64,000 bases of DNA from Clostridia bacterium (GTDB lineage Bacteria > Bacillota > Clostridia > Oscillospirales > RGIG8002): the NCBI GenBank assembly GCA_017438525.1, contig JAFRVI010000004.1, positions 15,281 through 79,280 on the forward strand. The letters are read 5' to 3'. Under the pieces are notes generated by a model. It ran no database searches. It saw only the letters and a list, made by a program, of their open reading frames with translations, and was not told where the DNA came from. Shown here piece by piece: positions 29,140-49,994 of the stretch (its first letter is position 1; every line of letters starts with the position of its first letter). A program made the position numbers and the translations under genes.

Positions 29140-30417
29140 TCATATGCAGTTGTTGTCGACGCAGTTTTCTATGAATTCGGAAAACAGAGCTTCCGGCCAG
29201 GTGAACCATTCGCGCGTGTAGTTGCAAGGATTGTCAACGTCAAATCCTTCGTGAAGATGACATTTTCCGGCTTCGGTTGAAGCGATTGTTTTGAGTAGTT
29301 CGCGCCTTTCGTTGTCATCCGTCGAGGTCAATCCCTGCATTATAAGCGACATATGCCAGACATAATTCCGAGGAGTGTGCGGCGAACCTATGCCGCGGGC
29401 ATACTTTCCGGAGTAATAATAAGGGTTATCCGCGCTTAACAGGAAACGACGGGTGTTGAGATATATCTCGTCGTCCGCGGCGGAATATCCTATATACGGT
29501 ATAGACAGCAAGCTGGGAACGTTCGCGTCGTCAATCATTGAGTAATGACCCATGCCATCCGTTTCGCAGGCGTAGATTCTGCCGTATTTCCCGTGCTCAA
29601 CGATGCAGTAGTTCCGTATCCCGTCGTCTATCTCTTTGCGGAGAGCGTCGCATTCGGCTGCGAGCGATTCGTTATTGCAAACGCTGCTGAGCATTTCCGC
29701 GGCGTAACCGAGAACGACTACCGCGAACATTTCTGAAGCGGTGAGGTAACCGTAAACGCAGCCGTCGTCGCTCGGTCTGAACGCGGAGCGCGTCATGCCT
29801 GTATACGCGGCGGGCGCGCCTCTGCCGCCGTAGGGATAGTCGTCGATTGTAATCCCGTTTTCCAAGCGTATGAAGTAATACGGCGAATTCTCTTCGTGAC
29901 GCTGTTCGATTCTCCATTGATTGAGAATAATGCGCATGACGGATTCGAGTTCATTTCTTATTATTTCCGTTTTACCGGTCTGTTTATAATATAAATACAG
30001 CAGACGCAGGGGATAACACAGGGAGTCGACCTCATACTTGCGTTCAAATACCCACGGATTGTTTTTCGGCAGATCCTCCGGATGCCCTTCGCCGTTCGGT
30101 TCCTGATTGAACGCGTTGGCATACGGATCTATCCTTATATACATGAATTGACGTTTAAGCACGCCTTCAATTATTTCAGAAATCTCCGGATCGTTTGCAA
30201 GCGGTATATAATGAGATACCTGCGCTGATGAATCGCGCAGCCACATTGCCGGTATATCGCCGGTTAGCACGAAATATGTTCCGTCGTCGCATTTTCGGAC
30301 GGCTGTCTCAAGCGTGCTGGCGCAGCAGTTTCTGTACAAATCACGCAGTTTGGGATGCCTTTCGAGTTTTTCTGAATAACGATCGATTCTTTTGATAAGG
30401 GAGTCGGGGAGCTGCAT
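29140..30417 (-). CDS. Glycoside hydrolase family 125 (exo-alpha-1,6-mannosidase-like)
   Basis: TGDIPAMWLRDSSAQ, DPYANAF, ERKYEVDSLCYP, DDANVPSLL, GSPHTP, WHMSLIMQGLT, REWFTW; start ATG 30417 after GAGGTG. Confidence 0.95.
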   Translation of the reverse strand: MQLPDSLIKRIDRYSEKLERHPKLRDLYRNCCASTLETAVRKCDDGTYFVLTGDIPAMWLRDSSAQVSHYIPLANDPEISEIIEGVLKRQFMYIRIDPYANAFNQEPNGEGHPEDLPKNNPWVFERKYEVDSLCYPLRLLYLYYKQTGKTEIIRNELESVMRIILNQWRIEQRHEENSPYYFIRLENGITIDDYPYGGRGAPAAYTGMTRSAFRPSDDGCVYGYLTASEMFAVVVLGYAAEMLSSVCNNESLAAECDALRKEIDDGIRNYCIVEHGKYGRIYACETDGMGHYSMIDDANVPSLLSIPYIGYSAADDEIYLNTRRFLLSADNPYYYSGKYARGIGSPHTPRNYVWHMSLIMQGLTSTDDNERRELLKTIASTEAGKCHLHEGFDVDNPCNYTREWFTWPEALFSEFIENCVDNNCI

Positions 30418-30443
30418 AGTATACACCTCGTTTCTACGTGTCG

Positions 30444-35889: not shown

Positions 35890-35923
35890 AACGACCGGTC
35901 GGAGTCAGCTCCGACCGGTCGTT
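35890..35923. terminator. Bidirectional terminator between guaA and acetyltransferase
   Basis: AACGACCGGTCGGAG-TCAG-CTCCGACCGGTCGTT 15-bp stem. Confidence 0.85.
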
Positions 35924-36555
35924 TTGCTTAGATTGTGTTTGTTGTACAGTTCGCAATCTGAGATGCGCAGGTCTTTGAAGTAAAACTCTTTGTCACGTTC
36001 GCCGATCGGGCGGAGGACGCGGCAGGGAACGCCTACGGCGACTACGTTTGCGGGAATATCCTTCGTTACCACGCTTCCGGCGCCTATCACGCTGTTGTCG
36101 CCGATGCTCACGCCGGGCAGAATAACGCTTCCGGTTCCGATCCAGCAGCATTTGCCGATATGAACGGGCGCGTTGTACTGATACTGCTTTTCGCGGAGCT
36201 CCGGAAGAATCGGATGCGCGGCGGTGCAAACGGTTACATTGGGGCCGAACTTGGTATTGTCACCCACATATATATGCGCATCGTCAACCAGCGTCAGATT
36301 AAAATTAGCGTATATATTGCTGCCGAAATGGACGTGCTTTCCGCCGAAATTAGCGTGAAAAGGCGGCTCGATGTAGCAGTTTTCTCCGATCTCCGCGAAC
36401 ATCTCCCTGAGCATTTCCTCGCGCTTGTTCAGCTCGGTCGGACGCGTCGCGTTGAAGTCGTACAGCTTGTCAAGACACGCGATCTGCTCCTTGAACAGAG
36501 CTTCATCCATAGGATAATACAACTTCCGGGAGTGCATTTTTTCTTTGATATCCAT
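35905..36555 (-). CDS. Sugar O-acetyltransferase (maltose/galactoside acetyltransferase, hexapeptide repeat)
   Basis: IEPPFHANFGG, FNLTLVDD, hexapeptide repeats IG..CWIG..SVILPGVSIGDNSVIGAGSVVTKDIP. Confidence 0.93.
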   Translation of the reverse strand: MDIKEKMHSRKLYYPMDEALFKEQIACLDKLYDFNATRPTELNKREEMLREMFAEIGENCYIEPPFHANFGGKHVHFGSNIYANFNLTLVDDAHIYVGDNTKFGPNVTVCTAAHPILPELREKQYQYNAPVHIGKCCWIGTGSVILPGVSIGDNSVIGAGSVVTKDIPANVVAVGVPCRVLRPIGERDKEFYFKDLRISDCELYNKHNLSKTTGRS

Positions 36556-41227: not shown

Positions 41228-41256
41228 TTGAAAAGTGCATTTCGTCGTGATATAAT
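41228..41256 (+). promoter_or_regulatory. sigma-A promoter for SGNH-dockerin cluster
   Basis: TTGAAA-17nt-TATAAT, extended -10. Confidence 0.7.
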
Positions 41257-41303
41257 GAGATGATAGAGTAGGCGTAAGCGTCTTTCTTTGAGTTGTTAAG
41301 TAT

Positions 41304-41332
41304 ATTATAAGCGTCGAATCCTCATTTTGCAA
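41304..41332 (-). promoter_or_regulatory. sigma-A promoter for PHP-Lrp-aminotransferase-ispE operon
   Basis: TTGCAA-17nt-TATAAT on minus strand. Confidence 0.7.
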
Positions 41333-41352: not shown

Positions 41353-42744
41353 ATGAAAAGATTCTTTTCCGTCATAATTGCCCTTTCGATAGCGGCGTCG
41401 CTTTTTATAATCTCGCCGGTAACCGCGAAAGCATTATATAAAGTAAAAATCGCCTGCATAGGCGACAGCATTACTGACGGCGGCTTTATACCGGGATACG
41501 GCTATCCCGACGGACAGGGCCTCGATGACCCCCGCTGCTATCCGAAGCAGCTTGAAGCTCTGCTCGGCGAGAACTACGAGGTAAAGAACTTCGGAGACAG
41601 CGGCAGAACGCTGATGAGCACCGCGGATTATCCTTATATTTCCGCTCCCGGCGAGCTCTATCGTGAAAGTCTTGAATATGACGCTGATATAGTTCTGATA
41701 ATGCTCGGTACCAACGACGCGAAGGTTACGAACGATCCGAGCACCACGAACTGGAAAGAGGATAGTCCGCAGCAGTTCAAGACCGATCTGGAGGCGCTTA
41801 TCGAGGTTTATCGCAATCTGCCGAGTCATCCGACGGTTTATGTGCTGACTTCGCCGACCGCGTTCAACAACGGCGCTTATAACATCGTTCCCGCCAATGT
41901 CGACACGATAGCGGAACTGCAGCGCGAGGTCGCCGCGGATCTCAACGCTCCGCTTATCGATATGCACACGCTCACGGCTGATATGGGAACTTATTTCAGT
42001 GATAACATCCACCCGAATCAGGCGGGCTACGCCCGTTTGGCGCAGCTTGTATATAATGAGCTTGTGCCGACTTTCACAGCGCCTTCCGCGCCTGTTGACG
42101 TCAGAGTCGTGAGCAACGGCAGCGGCAGGTCGATCGTTTCCTGGACGACCGGCAATAAGGGCGGACTGCCTACGCTTAATTTCAAGGTCTACATAGACGG
42201 CGAATTCATCGCGGACTTCGAACGCATGACTTACACCGCGAAAAACCTCACCAACGGCAGCGTATATGATTTCAACGTGACCGCCGTCAATTCGCTCGGC
42301 GAATCCGTTTTTTCGGAAACCGTGCAGCTTCAACCGACCGCGGCGGACCCGAAAGTCACAGGCGTTGCCGACGGAGTCGTTTACGACCTCGCGGACGGAG
42401 CGCCGAAGGCGAGCTGGAAAACGGCTACTTCAGCCACTCTCGACGGTAACGAATACGTGAAAGACACGGAAATAACAACTTTAGGCGAACATACTCTTGT
42501 CGTTACAAATGATAACGTCGTCGTTTCCGTAACCTTCACGGTTATTGATTCATCCTTTATGCCCGGAGATATGGACGGCGACGGCGAGATCACCGTCGCG
42601 GACGCGCTCGCGGTACTGCGCATTGCCGCGAAACTTGCTGATGAGACACCCGACGCTCTGCGTATTGGAGATATGGACGGCGACGGCGAGATCACCGTCG
42701 CGGACGCTCTCGCGGTACTGCGCATCGCCGCGAAACTTGCGTGA
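41353..42744 (+). CDS. Secreted SGNH/GDSL esterase 1 (sialate O-acetylesterase-like) + Fn3 + Ig-like + dockerin
   Basis: Signal peptide; SGNH blocks GDSIT, NFGDSG, GTND, DNIHP; Fn3 (SWT..GLP..FKVY...Y.F.V.AVN..GES); double GDMDGDGEITVADALAVLRIAAKLA. Confidence 0.88.
   Translation: MKRFFSVIIALSIAASLFIISPVTAKALYKVKIACIGDSITDGGFIPGYGYPDGQGLDDPRCYPKQLEALLGENYEVKNFGDSGRTLMSTADYPYISAPGELYRESLEYDADIVLIMLGTNDAKVTNDPSTTNWKEDSPQQFKTDLEALIEVYRNLPSHPTVYVLTSPTAFNNGAYNIVPANVDTIAELQREVAADLNAPLIDMHTLTADMGTYFSDNIHPNQAGYARLAQLVYNELVPTFTAPSAPVDVRVVSNGSGRSIVSWTTGNKGGLPTLNFKVYIDGEFIADFERMTYTAKNLTNGSVYDFNVTAVNSLGESVFSETVQLQPTAADPKVTGVADGVVYDLADGAPKASWKTATSATLDGNEYVKDTEITTLGEHTLVVTNDNVVVSVTFTVIDSSFMPGDMDGDGEITVADALAVLRIAAKLADETPDALRIGDMDGDGEITVADALAVLRIAAKLA
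42565..42741 (+). repeat. Near-identical coding repeats (dockerin halves, 102-nt period); further copies at 43956, 45314, 45416 and 23758-23934 (minus)
   Basis: GATATGGACGGCGACGGCGAGATCACCGTCGCGGACGC (38 nt) identical at 42568, 42670 and 43956. Confidence 0.9.
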
Positions 42745-42788
42745 TAAATCTTTTCATTTTATATTCACAACCGAAAGGGGGGCAGCGT

Positions 42789-44132
42789 GTGAAAAGATTG
42801 GTTTCGCTTATTACAGCGTTATCGCTCATGATGTCGCTTCTCATTATCCTTCCGACAGAGGTTAAAGCCGTTTACAAGGCGAAAATCGCATGCGTAGGCG
42901 ACAGCATTACATACGGATACGGTCTCGACGATCCGCGAAGCTTCCCGTCGCAGCTCGGCGTGCTTCTTCAGGAAAACTACGAAGTCAGGAACTTCGGCGC
43001 GGGCGGCAAGACGCTTATGAGCACCGGAGATACCCCTTATACGCAATATATCGAGTATCAGCCGAGTCTTGAATATGAAGGCGATATCGTTCTGATAATG
43101 CTCGGCACGAACGACGCCAAGTATTATAACTGGCATCCCGATTCTTCTCCGGCCGTTCTGAAGCGCGAACTGAAACAACTTGTTCAGACATACCGCGATC
43201 TGCCGAGCAAACCCACGGTGTTCATTATGACGTCCCCGACGCTTTTCGAGGGATGCCACCACGACTTCATACCATCTAACGTCGATACGATCGCGCAGCT
43301 TCAGCGTGAAGTTGCAGAGGAGATCAACGCTCCGCTTATAGACCTGCACACGTTCACCGCGGATATGGAGCAGTATTTCGAGGATAAAATCCACCCGAAT
43401 GCCGATGGATACGCCTTGATCGCCGATTACATCGACGATATTATCGTCGCTAACGAGGGAACGCTTCCCGGAGCTCCGAAAGACCCTTACGTTTTAAGAA
43501 ACTCCAGCGGAAGGTCTATCGTTATGTGGAGCACCGGACCGAAGGGCGGACTGCCGCTTCTCTCGTTCAACGTCTACATTAACGGCGAATTCTACGGAAA
43601 CAGCCGCAGCACAACGTTTACCGTAACTAAGCTTACGAACGGCGTTACTTATGAAATGACGGTTACTTCGCTTAACGCAAACGGCGAATCAGAGCGGTCC
43701 GAGGTCGTAATACTCGAACCGACGGCGGACGATCCGAAGGTTACCGGCGTTGAAGACGGCGGCGTTTACGATCTCTCCGAGGTCGCACCGCCGAAGGCAA
43801 GCTGGAAAAAAGCAACGTCCGCAACCCTCGACGGCGCTGAATACGCTAAAGATACCGAAATAACCGCCCCGGGCGAGCACGTCCTCGTCATCACTAACGA
43901 AAACGTAACCGTTACTGTCACCTTTACGGTTATCGCTCGCGAAACCGCCGCAGGTGATATGGACGGCGACGGCGAGATCACCGTCGCGGACGCTCTCGCG
44001 GTACTCCGCATCGCGGCGAAACTTGCCGACGAAACACCCGACGCTCTCCGCGTCGGAGATATGGACGCCGACGGCGCGATTACGGTTTCCGACGCTTTGA
44101 GAGTTCTTCGTATCGCCGCTAAGCTCGCGTAA
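42789..44132 (+). CDS. Secreted SGNH/GDSL esterase 2 + Fn3 + Ig-like + dockerin
   Basis: GTG start 42789 after GAAAGGGG; GDSITYG, NFGAGG, GTNDA, DKIHP; same C-terminal modules. Confidence 0.88.
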   Translation: MKRLVSLITALSLMMSLLIILPTEVKAVYKAKIACVGDSITYGYGLDDPRSFPSQLGVLLQENYEVRNFGAGGKTLMSTGDTPYTQYIEYQPSLEYEGDIVLIMLGTNDAKYYNWHPDSSPAVLKRELKQLVQTYRDLPSKPTVFIMTSPTLFEGCHHDFIPSNVDTIAQLQREVAEEINAPLIDLHTFTADMEQYFEDKIHPNADGYALIADYIDDIIVANEGTLPGAPKDPYVLRNSSGRSIVMWSTGPKGGLPLLSFNVYINGEFYGNSRSTTFTVTKLTNGVTYEMTVTSLNANGESERSEVVILEPTADDPKVTGVEDGGVYDLSEVAPPKASWKKATSATLDGAEYAKDTEITAPGEHVLVITNENVTVTVTFTVIARETAAGDMDGDGEITVADALAVLRIAAKLADETPDALRVGDMDADGAITVSDALRVLRIAAKLA

Positions 44133-44146
44133 GAAAGGGTAAGGAT

Positions 44147-45490
44147 ATGAAAAAAGCGCTGTCATTACTGGTTTTGCTTTCGATAGTCATTTCCGTTTGC
44201 GCGTTTGCGCCGTTCGTTGCCGAAGCGGCGCAGGTGATCAAAGTAGCTTGCATCGGCGACAGCATAACGTACGGCTACGGGCTTACGAGCTCGATGAGTT
44301 ATCCGACAAAGCTCGAGGGATATTTGGGCTCCAACTATGAGGTGACGAATTTCGGCGAGGGAAGCGCTACCATGCTTTCTGACGGCAAGAAGCCGTATAT
44401 CAGTCTTGATATTTATCAGCAGAGTCTGCAGTACGATTGCGACATAGTCGTTATCATGCTCGGCACGAACGACGGCAAGGAGTTTAACTGGGAAGGCAGT
44501 AATCCGAGAATAAACAAGTTCAAAAGCGAGCTTTCCGATCTGATTGATACCTACCGCGCGCTTCCTACTCATCCGACCGTTTACGTAATGACATCCCCCA
44601 CGGTTTTCGAAAACGGGAGTTACGGCATCGTTCCCGCAAGAGTAACCGAAATATCCGGACTTCAAAAGGAAGTAGCCGCGGAAAAGGACTGTCCGGTTAT
44701 CGATATGCACACTCTGACCGCAGATCAGAAGGATAAATTCCGCGACGACTACGTGCATCCCGAGGAATCCGGATACGACTTCATCGCGCAAAAAGTCGCG
44801 GAGCATATTCAGGCCTATCCCGGACGCGTCCCGGGTATCCCGCACAGTCTCGAAGTAAGGGATGCATCGAAAAGCGCTATTATTTCCTGGAAAATGACTG
44901 ACAAAGGCGATCTTCCGATGATTTCATACAATGTGTATGTCAATGGGGAGCTTTCAACGACGAGTTCGGGATTGACCGCGCGAGTCGGGAAACTTGTCAA
45001 CGGTCGGGAATACGAGATCCGCATTTCCGCGGTGAATGCCGTCGGAGAATCGGCGCTTTCCGAACCTGTCCTCGCGCATCCTACCGCCGCCGATCCTAAG
45101 GTTACCGGCGTAGAAGACGGAGCCGTTTATGATCTCGCGGACGGTGCGCCGGCGGCGAGTTGGAAGACTGCGACATCAGCTACGCTCGACGGCGAAGAAT
45201 ATGTCAAAGGTACGGAGATAACCGCCGAGGGAGAACATCTGCTTGTAGTAACTAATGATAATGTTGTCGTTACGATAGCGTTCACAGTGGTTAATTCGGC
45301 ATTTATACAGGGCGATATGGACGGAGACGGCGAAGTAACGGTCGCGGACGCTCTTGCGGTTCTTCGCATCGCCGCGAAGCTTGTTCCGGAAACGTCCGAA
45401 GCAATACGCATCGGCGATATGGACGGAGACGGCGAAATCACCGTTTCCGACGCTTTGCGGGTCCTTCGTATAGCCGCAAAACTCGCATAA
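44147..45490 (+). CDS. Secreted SGNH/GDSL esterase 3 + Fn3 + Ig-like + dockerin
   Basis: GDSITYG, NFGEGS, GTNDG, DYVHP; same C-terminal modules. Confidence 0.88.
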   Translation: MKKALSLLVLLSIVISVCAFAPFVAEAAQVIKVACIGDSITYGYGLTSSMSYPTKLEGYLGSNYEVTNFGEGSATMLSDGKKPYISLDIYQQSLQYDCDIVVIMLGTNDGKEFNWEGSNPRINKFKSELSDLIDTYRALPTHPTVYVMTSPTVFENGSYGIVPARVTEISGLQKEVAAEKDCPVIDMHTLTADQKDKFRDDYVHPEESGYDFIAQKVAEHIQAYPGRVPGIPHSLEVRDASKSAIISWKMTDKGDLPMISYNVYVNGELSTTSSGLTARVGKLVNGREYEIRISAVNAVGESALSEPVLAHPTAADPKVTGVEDGAVYDLADGAPAASWKTATSATLDGEEYVKGTEITAEGEHLLVVTNDNVVVTIAFTVVNSAFIQGDMDGDGEVTVADALAVLRIAAKLVPETSEAIRIGDMDGDGEITVSDALRVLRIAAKLA

Positions 45491-45499
45491 GGAATCACA

Positions 45500-46147
45500 A
45501 TGAGCATATACGTAATCAGCGGTCACTACGGCTGCGGCAAAACGAATATTTCAATAAATCTGGCGTATAAGCTTCTGAAAGAGGGAAGCGCGGCGATATT
45601 CGATCTTGACGTCGTTAATCCGTATTTCCGTACCGCAGACTTCACGGATAAAATGCGTGCCGACGGTATCACCGTCGTTGCTCCCGTGTTCGCTAATACG
45701 AATCTTGATACACCTGCGCTGACCGGCGAATTCAGCAATATCTATACCGGAATCTACGACAACGTTATCGTGGACGTCGGCGGCGACGATTCCGGCGCGT
45801 TCGCGCTCGGTCAATATGCCGAGGGAATAGCGAAAAGCGGTTCCTGGCAGCATTGGTACGTTGTCAACTTCATGCGCACGCTGACGTTGACAACCGCTGA
45901 TAATATCGAGCTCATGCGTGATATCGAGAACGCGGGCAAACTGCCGTTTACCGGAATCATTAACAACACCAACCTCGGCGCCGAGACTACCGCCGAGCTC
46001 GTCAGAGAATCGGTCGAAAAAGCGAAATCTCTTTCCGAGGCGTCAAATCTCCCGTTGCTTTATACCTCCGTAGAGACCGGTATCGAATGCGGAGATGTCG
46101 ATTCTCCCGTTATGACGATTCAAATAACGACAAAGCGTTATTGGTAA
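45500..46147 (+). CDS. Uncharacterised P-loop NTPase (MinD/ParA/CobQ-like) preceding 2-oxoacid oxidoreductase genes
   Basis: SGHYGCGKTNISINLA, DLDVVNPYFRTAD, IVDVGGDD.GA..LG, INNTNLG.ET. Confidence 0.8.
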   Translation: MSIYVISGHYGCGKTNISINLAYKLLKEGSAAIFDLDVVNPYFRTADFTDKMRADGITVVAPVFANTNLDTPALTGEFSNIYTGIYDNVIVDVGGDDSGAFALGQYAEGIAKSGSWQHWYVVNFMRTLTLTTADNIELMRDIENAGKLPFTGIINNTNLGAETTAELVRESVEKAKSLSEASNLPLLYTSVETGIECGDVDSPVMTIQITTKRYW

Positions 46148-46202
46148 GGCCACAACGATCAATGATCGTTGACATATACTCAATCTGAAGGGAAGTAAGA
46201 AA

Positions 46203-46409
46203 ATGGCAAAAATCACAGTAGACGAAAACGTCTGTAAGGGATGCGGTCTTTGCGCGGACGCCTGTCCGAAAAAGATAATCAAACTCTCTGACAGCAAATT
46301 CAACAAAAAGGGCTATCCCGTCGCCGAAATGACCGACGAGAAAAGCTGCATCGGCTGCGCCTTCTGCGCGACCATGTGCCCGGATACGGCTATAACTGTC
46401 GAAAAGTAG
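46203..46409 (+). CDS. 2x[4Fe-4S] ferredoxin, delta subunit of 2-oxoacid:ferredoxin oxidoreductase
   Basis: CKGCGLCADACP and CIGCAFCATMCP. Confidence 0.95.
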   Translation: MAKITVDENVCKGCGLCADACPKKIIKLSDSKFNKKGYPVAEMTDEKSCIGCAFCATMCPDTAITVEK

Positions 46410-46425
46410 AAAGGAAGATGACAGA

Positions 46426-47490
46426 ATGAGCGAAAAAGTATTGATGAAGGGCAACGAAGCCGTTGCGGAATCGGCGATAAGAGCCGGCTGCAGACACTTC
46501 TTCGGCTATCCGATAACGCCTCAGACGGAAGTCGCGGCGTATTTCGCGAAGCGTATGCCCAAAATAGGCGGAACGTATCTCCAGGCGGAGAGCGAAATTG
46601 CCGCTATAAACATGGTGCTCGGAGCCGGCGGCTCAGGCGCGAGAGCGATGACTTCTTCGTCTTCGCCCGGAATCAGTCTTAAAACCGAGGGTATTTCTTA
46701 TATCTGCGGTTCCGACGTTCCGTGCGTTATTATGAATATCGAGCGCGGCGGCCCCGGACTCGGCGGAATTCAGCCCTCTCAGTCCGACTATTATCAGGCG
46801 ACGAAAGCCCCCGGCCACGGCGATCTTCACGTCATCGTCCTCGCTCCGTCCGGAGTTCAGGAGATGGCGGATATCACCTATAACGCCTTCGATCTCGCGG
46901 AAAAATACCGTATGCCTTGCCTTATCCTCGGCGACGGCATACTGGGGCAGATGATGGAGCCCGTGGAGCTTCCCGAGCCGAAGGAAGTCTCGGCGGCCGA
47001 TAAGCCCTGGGCCGCCTGCGGTCACGGAAACAAGCGTGAGCACAATATCATCAACTCGCTTTACCTCGACCCTGCGGAGCTTGAAAACAAGGTGAGAGCG
47101 AGATATGAGCGCTACGCGCAGATAGAGGAAAACGAGGTCCGTTACGAAGAGTATAAGACCGAGGACGCCGATATCATCATAACCGCGTTCGGCGCTACCT
47201 CCAGAGTCGCCAAAAGCGCGATCAATACCGCGCGAGATATGGGAATAAAGGCGGGACTAATTCGGCCCATCACGCTTTGGCCGTTCCCGAAAAAGATCAT
47301 AGCGAAGCGTGCCGAAACGGCAAAAGCGTTCCTTTCGGTCGAAATGAATATGGGGCAGATGGTCGACGACGTCCGTCTCGCCGTCAACGGCAAAAAGCCC
47401 GTATACTTCTTCGGCCGCACCGGCGGAATCGTTCCCACGGCGGAAGAGATTATCGCCGAGCTTGAAAAGATCAACGGAGGTGCGAAATGA
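46426..47490 (+). CDS. vorB: 2-oxoacid:ferredoxin oxidoreductase alpha subunit (VorB-like, 3-methyl-2-oxobutanoate dehydrogenase)
   Basis: MKGNEAVAESAI, FGYPITPQTE, QAESEIAA, TSSSSPGISL, GIQPSQSDY. Confidence 0.9.
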   Translation: MSEKVLMKGNEAVAESAIRAGCRHFFGYPITPQTEVAAYFAKRMPKIGGTYLQAESEIAAINMVLGAGGSGARAMTSSSSPGISLKTEGISYICGSDVPCVIMNIERGGPGLGGIQPSQSDYYQATKAPGHGDLHVIVLAPSGVQEMADITYNAFDLAEKYRMPCLILGDGILGQMMEPVELPEPKEVSAADKPWAACGHGNKREHNIINSLYLDPAELENKVRARYERYAQIEENEVRYEEYKTEDADIIITAFGATSRVAKSAINTARDMGIKAGLIRPITLWPFPKKIIAKRAETAKAFLSVEMNMGQMVDDVRLAVNGKKPVYFFGRTGGIVPTAEEIIAELEKINGGAK

Positions 47491-48242
47491 GCATCGTATT
47501 CAAAAAGACAAGTATGCTGACCGATGCGCCGCTGTCGTATTGCCCCGGCTGCACTCACGGAATAATCACGCGCCTCGTCGCGGAGGTCGTTGACGAGATG
47601 GGACTCGCCGGCGATACCATCGGTATCGCGCCGGTCGGATGCTCCGTCCTCGCGTATAACTTCTTCTCCTGCGATATGATCCAGGCGCCTCACGGACGCG
47701 CTCCGGCAGTCGCTACCGGCGTTAAGAGAGCGCATCCCGACAAGACCGTCTTCACCTATCAGGGAGACGGAGACCTCGCCGCGATCGGTACCGCCGAAAC
47801 TATCCATTCCGGCGCGCGCGGAGAGAATATATGCATTTTCTTCGTCAACAACGCTATCTACGGTATGACCGGCGGTCAGGTCGCTCCCACGAGTCTGCCC
47901 GGACAGGTCACGCAGACCACTCCCTACGGCCGTGACGTCAAGTATTCCGGCAACCCCATCCGCGTATGCGAAATGATGGCTACGGTTACCGGCACGGCTT
48001 ACGTCGAAAGAGTCGCGGTCGACTGCGTCAAGAACGTCCGCCACGCTAAAGAAGCCATACGCAAGGCGTTCACCATGCAGCAGGAGAAGAAGGGCCTTTC
48101 GCTCGTCGAATTCCTTTCTACCTGTCCGACAAACTGGGGACTCACCCCGGTCAAAGCGCTTGAGTGGCTTCGCGAGAATCTCATGGCGTATTATCCGCTC
48201 GGCGTTTATAAAGACGTCACCGCAGAGGAGGAAGCGAAATGA
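47487..48242 (+). CDS. 2-oxoacid:ferredoxin oxidoreductase beta subunit (TPP-binding)
   Basis: YCPGCTHG, APVGCS, HGRAPAVATG, YQGDGDL, NNAIYGMTGGQ, STCPTNWG. Confidence 0.93.
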   Translation: MSIVFKKTSMLTDAPLSYCPGCTHGIITRLVAEVVDEMGLAGDTIGIAPVGCSVLAYNFFSCDMIQAPHGRAPAVATGVKRAHPDKTVFTYQGDGDLAAIGTAETIHSGARGENICIFFVNNAIYGMTGGQVAPTSLPGQVTQTTPYGRDVKYSGNPIRVCEMMATVTGTAYVERVAVDCVKNVRHAKEAIRKAFTMQQEKKGLSLVEFLSTCPTNWGLTPVKALEWLRENLMAYYPLGVYKDVTAEEEAK

Positions 48243-48772
48243 TTGACACCAGTATCATAATCGCCGGTTTCGGCGGGCAGGGTATACTCTTCACCGGCAA
48301 GGTGCTCGCTTACGCGGGAATGGTTGACGGCATCAACGTTTCGCACCTGCCGTCATACGGCCCCGAAATGCGCGGCGGCACCGCCAACTGCACCGTCTGC
48401 CTCTGCGAAGAGCCCGTCGCTTCTCCGCTCGTGACGCGTCCCGATATGATCATCGTGATGAACCAGCCCTCTTACGACAAGTTTAAGGGCTGCGTGAAAA
48501 AGGGTGGCAAGATATTCCTCGACAGCTCGCTCATTTCCGAGTGGGAGGAAGTGGAAGGCGTGGAATCATTCGCGATCCCCGCGACCGAACTCGCGAGAAA
48601 CAACGACCTGAAAGGTCTCGCCAACATGATAATGCTCGGCAAGGTTCTTAAAGAGACCAGCATTTTCGGCGTTCCGGAAATCGAGGCCGGACTTAAAAAG
48701 GCCGTTCCCGAAAAGAAAGCGCACCTGATACCCTCCAACGTCAAAGCCGTCGAACTCGGTATGTCGCTATGA
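48239..48772 (+). CDS. 2-oxoacid:ferredoxin oxidoreductase gamma subunit
   Basis: [29 protein letters not shown]. Confidence 0.93.
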
Positions 48773-49926
48773 CCGGACGTATCGGAGCGGTTATCGCCGC
48801 CGCGGGAAGCTCCGCCAGGATGGGCGGAATCGATAAGATGCTTGCGCTCGTCGGCGGTATGCCGGTGATAGCGCGAACTTGTCTTGCCTTCGAGGCGAAC
48901 GGTAACGTTTCCGAAATCGTTGTAGTTGCAAAAAGTGATAACGTCGCCGCCGTCAGGGAAATCCTTGACGGCTGCGGCATTTCAAAGCTGAAGGCGGTCG
49001 TCGCGGGCGGCGAAACGCGCGCTGAATCCGTCAGAAACGGCGTGAACCGGCTTTCCGATTGCGAGTATATCGCCATTCACGACGGCGCCAGACCGTTCGT
49101 TTCGCAAAAACTGATTAATGAATGTGCCGAAACCGCGTATGAACACGGATCTGCTGTTCCTGTTATACCTTCTTTTGACACTCTTAAAACCGTCTCGGAC
49201 GGAGTCGTTACCGGAACAGTAGACAGAAGCGCCGTTTACCGTGTGCAAACACCGCAGATCTTCAAAACGGAGCTTTACGTCAAAGCGCTTGACAAGTTTG
49301 CCGACAGCGGATTCACGGACGACTGCGCCATGCTTGAGGAGGCAGGTGAAAACGTCGCAGTTTGCGGCGGCGACGAGGAGAATATCAAAATCACCGTGCC
49401 GTCAGACTTGAAATACGGTACATTCCTTGCGGAAGGGGATAATAAAGTGATAAGAACCGGTTTCGGATATGACGTACACCGCCTCGTCGAAGGCAGAAAG
49501 CTGATTCTTTGCGGCGTTGACGTTCCGTTCGAAAAAGGATTGCTCGGGCATTCAGATGCCGACGTCGCGCTGCACGCGCTTATGGACGCCTTACTCGGAG
49601 CCGCGGCGCTCGGAGATATCGGCGGACTTTTCCCGGACAACGACGACAAATACGCAGGCGCAAACAGTATGAATCTGCTGAACACCGTCGTTGACATTGT
49701 TTTTGACAACGGGTATACAATCGGCAATATAGATGTTACGATCATTGCGCAGCGCCCGAAGCTTGCTCCGTTTATCGATGAAATGAGACGCTATATCGCT
49801 TCGGCGTGCCGGATCGAGACCGGGTGCGTGAGTGTCAAGGCGACCACGGAGGAAGGACTCGGTTTCACCGGTTCAGGCGAAGGCATTTCGGCAACTGCCG
49901 TTTGCACGTTAAACGGCAAAACGTAA
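48769..49926 (+). CDS. ispDF: Bifunctional IspD/IspF (MEP cytidylyltransferase + MEcPP synthase)
   Basis: [30 protein letters not shown] (IspD); [23 protein letters not shown] (IspF). Confidence 0.95.
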
Positions 49927-49952: not shown

Positions 49953-49994
49953 GCCTTTTGCGCGAGCCATACGCTCCGCGAAAGGCGTTTTTTT
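49953..49994 (+). terminator. Terminator after ispDF
   Basis: CGCCTTT(T)GCG...CGCGAAAGGCG followed by TTTTTTT. Confidence 0.7.

Follow-up and report, generated by a model that had tools for sequence, protein, structure and literature searches.

Three dockerin-bearing SGNH-type esterase genes with diverged catalytic domains and alike docking tails in a Clostridia genome

Three tandem genes of one architecture

The 64,000-nucleotide stretch of DNA analysed here (the window; contig JAFRVI010000004.1, positions 15,281 to 79,280, of the assembly GCA_017438525.1 of an uncultured Clostridia bacterium from the ruminant gut) carries three intact open reading frames (ORFs) in tandem on the + strand, g1 (41353-42744, 463 amino acids), g2 (42789-44132, 447 amino acids) and g3 (44147-45490, 447 amino acids). 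Each encodes a signal peptide, an SGNH hydrolase domain, a fibronectin type III (Fn3) domain, an immunoglobulin-like (Ig-like) module and a C-terminal dockerin, and their paralogy lies far above chance (pairwise E ~1e-150). We consider it somewhat better than even, at roughly 55%, that the triplet encodes three secreted SGNH-type carbohydrate O-acetylesterases that specialised after two old duplications and are displayed through their dockerins.

Translation of g1 is preceded by the Shine-Dalgarno sequence AAAGGAGA, and g2 opens with a GTG codon behind the Shine-Dalgarno sequence AAAGGGGGG, a start that agrees with the database gene call P0019. The Sec-type signal peptides end AKA, VKA or AEA as read from the translations, and all three proteins score above the curated Pfam cut-offs for Lipase_GDSL_2/Lipase_GDSL (E 1e-24 to 1e-28 for Lipase_GDSL_2), fn3 and Dockerin_1, reaching 87-100 bits for PF13472 (cut-off 32.9), 28.3-33.2 bits for PF00041 (Fn3; cut-off 25) and 28.4-32.7 bits for PF00404 (cut-off 22.9). 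By residue, the modules of g1 are the signal peptide (1-27), SGNH (28-240), Fn3 (241-328), Big_3-like Ig (329-400) and type I dockerin (405-463); in g2 the signal peptide, SGNH and Fn3 are followed by the Ig-like module (~311-384) and the dockerin (388-447), and in g3 the signal peptide precedes SGNH (27-226), Fn3 (232-308), Ig-like (313-384) and dockerin (385-447). The catalytic blocks GDSIT, NFG, GTND and DxxH are unchanging in g1-g3 and in 31 family members. They are blocks I, II, III and V of the SGNH/GDSL superfamily, with its Ser, Gly, Asn and His residues.

The 72-amino-acid module between Fn3 and dockerin gave no Pfam match, PF07523 included, when the triplet proteins were scanned. It is predicted as a small Ig-like beta-sandwich in an AlphaFold model of the Ig-dockerin segment (predicted local distance difference test, pLDDT, 92.6), and its fold matches in the PDB are weak and Ig-like. 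A profile built from 28 copies in the genome matched the genome's own PF07523 copies with an hhalign probability of 90% (E 1.4e-6 over 60 columns), and the name Ig is therefore a fair one. An earlier annotation made from the letters of the window alone (the sequence-only reading) had proposed this SGNH-Fn3-Ig-dockerin order with intact catalytic residues for every copy, and the Pfam assignments, the invariant blocks and the Big_3 profile match bear it out. The Big_3-like module recurs in ~20 ORFs of the genome, standing in 1-3 tandem copies directly before the dockerin of many large surface proteins (for example G000 C31:12673-18918, C29:8634-13181 and C42:4171-8688). A strict X-dockerin dyad of the type II style was rejected on the grounds that the module occurs in ~20 ORFs, often two or three times in tandem, and that most dockerin proteins are without it.

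An old array conserved across lineages

A search of ~5.8 billion proteins returned ~34 clusters with the full architecture, all of them from metagenomes or metagenome-assembled genomes (MAGs), and those that carry names are annotated merely as hypothetical or as 'fibronectin type III domain-containing'. In a maximum-likelihood tree, g1, g2 and g3 each have a clade of their own, with 9-10 sequences and 97-100% support, and the g1 and g2 clades are sisters. Reconstructed from this tree, the origin of the triplet is shown to lie in two old tandem duplications.

Syntenic MAG contigs from ruminant gut samples, spanning several lineages, share the order ispE, aminotransferase, AsnC regulator, PHP, three esterases, P-loop protein, ferredoxin, 2-oxoacid:ferredoxin oxidoreductase (OFOR) alpha-beta-gamma and IspDF. 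A more distant lineage (L005) has two esterases at the same locus; they pair up in the tree, a pattern suggestive of either an independent duplication or homogenisation long ago. Among the 41 genomes searched, a single genus stands for the family of the genome that contains the window (1.85 Mb, 97% complete); in two further genomes of that genus (G001 and G003, the latter 97% complete) neither the triplet nor the adjoining P-loop gene was found at E <= 1e-20, a result that fits both loss of the locus and an assembly gap.

Catalytic domains diverge beside the active site

The model of the g3 SGNH domain (AF2; pLDDT 95.7) has a three-layer alpha/beta/alpha flavodoxin-like fold, matched by solved SGNH esterases at TM-scores of 0.7-0.8 with a probability of 1.00 (Foldseek). 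The PDB matches found by fold, sequence and profile are generic to SGNH proteins, comprising carbohydrate acetylesterases, acetylxylan esterases, aryl esterases and TesA, and the naming of a substrate from sequence and fold searches of the PDB was dropped for this reason.

Differences between the copies are concentrated near the invariant blocks. After block I, the Y of g2 and g3 gives way in g1 to D plus an insertion of 11 residues, and this g1-only insertion (DGGFIPGYGYPDGQG) is kept within the g1 orthologue clade. Block II reads DSGRT in g1, AGGKT in g2 and EGSAT in g3 (GEGSAT with its leading residue), each conserved in its own clade as DSGRT, gGKT or GSAT. These features are as the sequence-only reading had described them, now with the addition that each is conserved across the orthologues of its copy. 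A second g1-specific insertion of ~6 residues, absent from that description, follows block III, further clade-specific differences flank block V, and many of the clade-specific SGNH sites directly adjoin catalytic blocks.

Module by module, the paralogues share 49-61% amino acid identity in SGNH, 34-53% in Fn3, 72-82% in the Ig-like module and 85-92% in the dockerin. Columns that are conserved inside clades and different between them number 35/219 in SGNH, 4/88 in Fn3, 0/74 in the Ig-like module and 0/70 in the dockerin. The earlier proposal, in which the catalytic domains diverged in loops close to the active site as the tails stayed alike, thus stands for the Ig-like module and the dockerin; its extension to all C-terminal modules fails for Fn3, the most divergent module of all. 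Comparison of orthologues shows strong purifying selection on the SGNH domain (non-synonymous divergence, dN, 0.02-0.22; dN/dS, omega, 0.03-0.12), and the fixed differences beside catalytic blocks point to functional divergence followed by conservation. A 'diversified panel', as the three had been called, is consistent with three stable orthologue clades, with clade-specific conserved sites concentrated in SGNH and with strong purifying selection in each clade.

Docking tails have a history of their own

Synonymous sites between the window paralogues are near saturation in every module (proportion of differing synonymous sites, pS, 0.65-0.90), slightly less so in the dockerin (0.50-0.65), whose DNA is 76-83% identical between copies with no long near-identical stretch. 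The tails in the window evolve under constraint (omega ~0.06-0.08). Near-saturated synonymous sites and the lack of long identical DNA point to constraint, not recent gene conversion, behind the likeness of the tails in the window, and recent conversion was rejected as its source there.

Conversion is seen in relatives. A tree of the Ig-like module and dockerin recovered the paralogue groups g1, g2 and g3 in 0% of bootstrap trees, and the tails of neighbouring paralogues from one lineage cluster together. In the two-copy lineage L005 (6628-9341 of a JGI metagenome contig), the Ig-dockerin tail has a synonymous divergence (dS) of 0.14-0.18, with SGNH and Fn3 saturated, a clear sequence signature of recent gene conversion that reached the docking end alone; conversion was also seen in L003-type g1/g2 tails. 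Between the orthologues W_g1 and L2_g1, tail dS (1.3-1.5) exceeds head dS (0.2-0.5). The comparison of catalytic with dockerin phylogenies that had been suggested from the sequence thus returned discordant histories of head and tail. Judged from these substitution patterns, the likeness of the tails is the product of strong purifying selection together with episodic gene conversion, the latter shown in the relatives.

Dockerins and cohesins

The dockerins of g1-g3 resemble the others of the genome and carry a duplicated DMDGDGEITVxDAL motif in two nearly identical repeats of the EF-hand-like, Ca-binding kind, each with a helix after it. Their model aligns structurally with C. thermocellum type I dockerins at a root-mean-square deviation of 1.5-2.0 A and TM-scores, normalised by target length, of 0.74-0.85. 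Two cohesin proteins were detected as candidate partners. One, of 301 amino acids (L001 1408-2313; G000 C51), carries, after its signal peptide, a cohesin joined by a linker to a C-terminal transmembrane helix, behind which lies KKKNK; the other, a 323-amino-acid adaptor (L031; G000 C71:47062-48030, - strand), consists of a signal peptide, a cohesin, Big_2 and a dockerin, its cohesin match being the weaker (26.1 bits against a cut-off of 24.1).

A conserved promoter and a putative operon

A promoter-like site, TTGAAA-17-TATAAT with a TG extension (TGnTATAAT) that agrees with the consensus at 11/12 positions, lies upstream of g1 at 41228-41256 (+). In four lineages the sequence in between has diverged, but both hexamers, the TG and the Shine-Dalgarno sequence have stayed the same. 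A facing promoter (TTGCAA-17-TATAAT, - strand) serves the divergent PHP gene; both lie within 41228-41332 and are conserved in the four lineages, and the 5' ends predicted from them overlap.

The genes of the array are separated by 44 nucleotides (g1-g2) and 14 nucleotides (g2-g3), and 9 nucleotides (2-10 in relatives) part g3 from a downstream gene for a 215-amino-acid P-loop NTPase-like protein, whose ribosome-binding site overlaps the g3 stop codon. That gene opens a probably co-transcribed run on the + strand (45500-49926) that continues with ferredoxin, OFOR alpha, beta and gamma, and IspDF. No credible + strand terminator was found between the array and 49971, where the first terminator-like hairpin followed by a T-run begins (49971-49988, +). 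On this arrangement, the esterases are likely co-transcribed with the OFOR and IspDF genes. The P-loop gene itself (45500-46147, +) is kept at the same position in all related loci; its product had no Pfam match at E <= 1e-5, with a faint ParA match in relatives.

Genome setting

A dockerin query detected 74 dockerin ORFs in the genome, in 29 similarity clusters, one of which is composed of proteins with GH16 and WD40 propellers (19 members). Representatives of other clusters include BspA-type leucine-rich repeat proteins, proteins with tyrosine-phosphatase, CBM4_9 and Big_3 domains, cleaved-adhesin proteins, metallophosphatases, Cthe_2159, DUF4886, GH78-like, GH92, CHAP with ricin, endonuclease/phosphatase and DUF4430 (B12-binding type) proteins, and several without a Pfam match. 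Five SGNH paralogues of ~460-497 amino acids carry N-terminal dockerins (G000 C46:2868-7400 and C62:5957-8802), and one representative (L013; C46:4432-5922) is strongly homologous to the Roseburia intestinalis acetyl-mannan esterase 6hfz of carbohydrate esterase (CE) family CE17 over residues 5-346 of 378 (E 9.5e-52).

No glycoside hydrolase (GH) adjoins the triplet, as had been noted before; it is flanked by housekeeping genes, and the closest GH, a GH125 exo-alpha-1,6-mannosidase encoded at 29140-30426 (-), lies ~11 kb upstream. The genome also holds two GH130 genes (C20:1374-2318 and C40:29025-29912) and a dockerin-bearing GH92 (G000 C9:144311-148390), and the gene content of GH125, GH92 and two GH130 suggests mannoside or N-glycan catabolism. 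A gene of the Mac/hexapeptide type (maltose or galactoside O-acetyltransferase), its product cytoplasmic, lies ~5 kb upstream of the esterases at 35905-36555 (-); its position is kept in L002 and L003, it is absent in L005, and no link to the esterases was shown.

Subfamily, substrate and competing explanations

The best NCBIfam match of the SGNH domains is the acetylxylan esterase AxeA1 (NF042968; E 1e-38 to 1e-42, 130-145 bits). It covers model positions 270-459 only, and for want of the N-terminal domain its score stays far under the 700-bit equivalog cut-off. Fusions to CBM2, CBM3 or F5/8-type-C modules occur in relatives at 41-46% identity. A tree of SGNH domains places the triplet family with F5/8-type-C-fused Clostridia proteins, some of them dockerin-bearing, and has the CBM2/3-fused group in the same half. 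Remote matches (E 1e-6 to 1e-10) reach the CE representatives 2wao/4xvh, 5b5s, 2o14 and 6hfz, which we take to belong to CE2, CE3, CE12 and CE17, respectively. Our leading candidate substrate, put at a little short of even odds, would be O-acetylated plant hemicellulose polymers or oligosaccharides (acetyl-xylan, acetyl-mannan, xyloglucan fragments).

Several points weigh against three displayed carbohydrate O-acetylesterases, or against this substrate for them. In a control scan, relatives fused to CBM2, CBM3, F5/8-type-C, SASA and BNR/sialidase modules all matched the AxeA1 model (146-250 bits), so that the match marks a broad carbohydrate O-acetylesterase subfamily rather than xylan specificity, and its use as xylan evidence was rejected. 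The closest solved structure is <=24% identical in PDB sequence, profile and fold searches. Five positions past the block II Asn, g3 has Ser, where E. coli TAP has its oxyanion Gly. Dockerin-bearing SGNH hydrolases of another cellulosome producer release hydroxycinnamates, not acetate alone (PMC12774918). The genome gave no match to GH10, GH43, GH5 or GH26 models, and hence no partner xylanase or mannanase was found, and its dockerin protein set (mainly GH16-propeller, leucine-rich repeat, phosphatase, GH92, CHAP and adhesin types) is no less in keeping with microbial or eukaryotic-cell glycans than with plant fibre. For display, the sequence-only reading had invoked a scaffold, for which the sequence searches gave no support: Pfam and phmmer searches of the genome gave the two single-cohesin proteins only, one transmembrane-anchored and one a cohesin-dockerin adaptor, and no multi-cohesin scaffoldin. 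With no such scaffoldin detectable and no match to the GH5, GH10, GH26 and GH43 models, the host differs from cellulosome producers. A 2026 study shows that it takes structure prediction to reveal many ruminococcal cohesins, and it describes similar transmembrane-anchored single cohesins (PMC13463774); the count of two is therefore a lower bound, as divergent cohesins escape sequence searches. The predictive standing of two further elements, the pairing of the triplet dockerins with these single-cohesin proteins and the co-transcription with OFOR and IspDF, also counts on this side.

By its predicted proteins, the organism invests heavily in surface esterases and is without the classical endo-glycanase families tested, and this esterase-rich, endo-glycanase-poor gene content allows no firm choice between plant-derived oligosaccharides and microbial glycans. 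The strongest competitor, which we regard as unlikely but serious, is de-O-acetylation of the envelope glycans of other microbes (the 6-O-acetyl of N-acetylmuramic acid in peptidoglycan, capsules or exopolysaccharides, fungal or protozoal walls), the enzymes being part of a surface-docked kit that would dismantle neighbours or their debris. It would accommodate a dockerin complement with ~19 GH16-WD40 proteins and with CHAP-ricin, GH92, BspA-type and adhesin-like members and no classical fibre-degrading GH families, as well as the mannoside or N-glycan catabolism to which GH125 and the GH130s point. SGNH esterases acting on peptidoglycan do exist, and one of them, Ape1 (4k3u), is among the PDB matches; that match, however, is remote (E ~7e-6), the nearest fused relatives bear CBM2, CBM3 or F5/8C rather than peptidoglycan-binding modules, and no lysozyme or muramidase partner turned up, no search having been aimed at them.

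It is improbable, in our assessment, that the enzymes act on non-acetyl or non-carbohydrate esters (feruloyl/coumaroyl, butyryl, lipid or aryl) or that they are three largely redundant dosage copies. The substrate range of an SGNH protein is unreadable from its sequence, aryl esterases and TesA are among the best fold matches, and cellulosomal SGNHh1060 and SGNHh2017 cleave p-nitrophenyl butyrate or p-nitrophenyl ferulate and release hydroxycinnamates (PMC12774918). The close relatives, however, all bear carbohydrate-binding or glycosidase partner modules, and redundancy fits poorly with three clades under strong purifying selection that have fixed differences beside their catalytic blocks.

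Removal of 9-O- or 4-O-acetyl groups from host mucin sialic acids is very improbable: the broad subfamily does have SASA (PF03629)- and BNR/sialidase-fused members, 31-37% identical to g3, and the related MAGs come from ruminant gastrointestinal samples, but those members occupy the other half of the SGNH tree (98/93 support), no SASA match was found in g1-g3 at E <= 0.01 (Pfam) and no BNR_2 (GH33-type) sialidase match in the 97%-complete genome. Of the substrates listed by the sequence-only reading (sialic acids, plant glycans, peptidoglycan), sialate is for these reasons the least favoured, and the list is not narrowed further with confidence.

Relation to known systems

The SGNH domains of the triplet are homologous to that of AxeA1 from Prevotella ruminicola, which has an N-terminal domain of ~270 residues that is missing in the triplet and lacks the Fn3, Ig and dockerin modules. 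Two-domain sialate O-acetylesterases of Bacteroidota (EstA/NanS type) combine SGNH with SASA/DUF303; such SGNH-SASA proteins (~700 amino acids, PF13472 with PF03629) belong to the same broad subfamily as the triplet, on a separate major branch. Comparable too are the dockerin-bearing SGNH esterases of CE3 in C. thermocellum and Ruminococcus flavefaciens; the match of the triplet to 5b5s, the one solved CE3 chain among its hits, is remote (E ~1e-10 over half the domain). The Fn3 and Big_3-like spacer pair and the conserved array of three paralogues are specific to the triplet lineage.

The R. cellulolyticum (Ruminiclostridium) enzymes SGNHh1060, SGNHh2017 and SGNHh2395 are, like the triplet proteins, secreted and equipped with a type I dockerin that serves display through a cohesin (PMC12774918). 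The non-cellulolytic ruminococci R. difficilis and Ruminococcus sp. HUN007 share with the host of the triplet many dockerin proteins, few GHs and a cohesin anchored in the membrane through a C-terminal helix (PMC13463774), whereas that host belongs to a different lineage with a ~1.85 Mb genome and two sequence-detectable cohesins. Dockerin-bearing SGNH esterases are already well known (e.g. PMC12774918), and the triplet is ordinary, well-preserved variation on them.

Proposed mechanism and significance

In the mechanism that we favour for carbohydrate O-acetylesterases, the Ser-His-Asp triad and the Gly/Asn oxyanion hole of the SGNH fold would hydrolyse acetyl esters on sugars, as in the wider family. 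The paralogues most likely differ in the glycan or ring position that they deacetylate, because they differ in the loops around the active site. Fn3 and the Big_3-like Ig module would serve as spacers, and each enzyme would be docked on the cell by its C-terminal type I dockerin, with one of the two single-cohesin proteins, the transmembrane-anchored form or the adaptor, as its partner. The Ig-dockerin tail may stay matched to that cohesin through strong purifying selection, along with occasional conversion between neighbouring copies. The one conserved promoter before g1 probably drives the esterases along with the downstream oxidoreductase and IspDF genes. Deacetylation at the surface of material freed by other rumen microbes could make that material usable by a glycanase-poor bacterium.

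A broader and rather unlikely extension would unite the triplet, the five CE17-like dockerin esterases and the DUF4886 protein as a cell-surface 'deacetylation front' of a small-genome scavenger, unlocking acetyl-blocked oligosaccharides or rumen-microbe wall glycans that competitors cannot use. As part of an OFOR/IspDF transcript, the esterases would then be made constitutively with growth rather than induced by substrate.

Acetyl groups block many glycoside hydrolases, and deacetylases therefore decide access to hemicellulose and microbial glycans in the rumen. We regard the locus as of moderate interest for the discordant evolution of heads and tails, for an esterase-rich genome without the tested endo-glycanase families and for an apparent operon link to central metabolism. 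Its three genes are natural variants, long separated, of a single compact SGNH scaffold that differ above all in active-site loops, and as such they make a convenient set for learning positional and substrate specificity in a subfamily with no solved structure closer than 24% identity. It is also a clear case of modules within a gene evolving differently, the catalytic parts diverging and the docking tails homogenised. Ultimately, the triplet lends further weight to the view that gut Clostridia use dockerin-cohesin display as a general means of surface anchoring, not tied to cellulose degradation.

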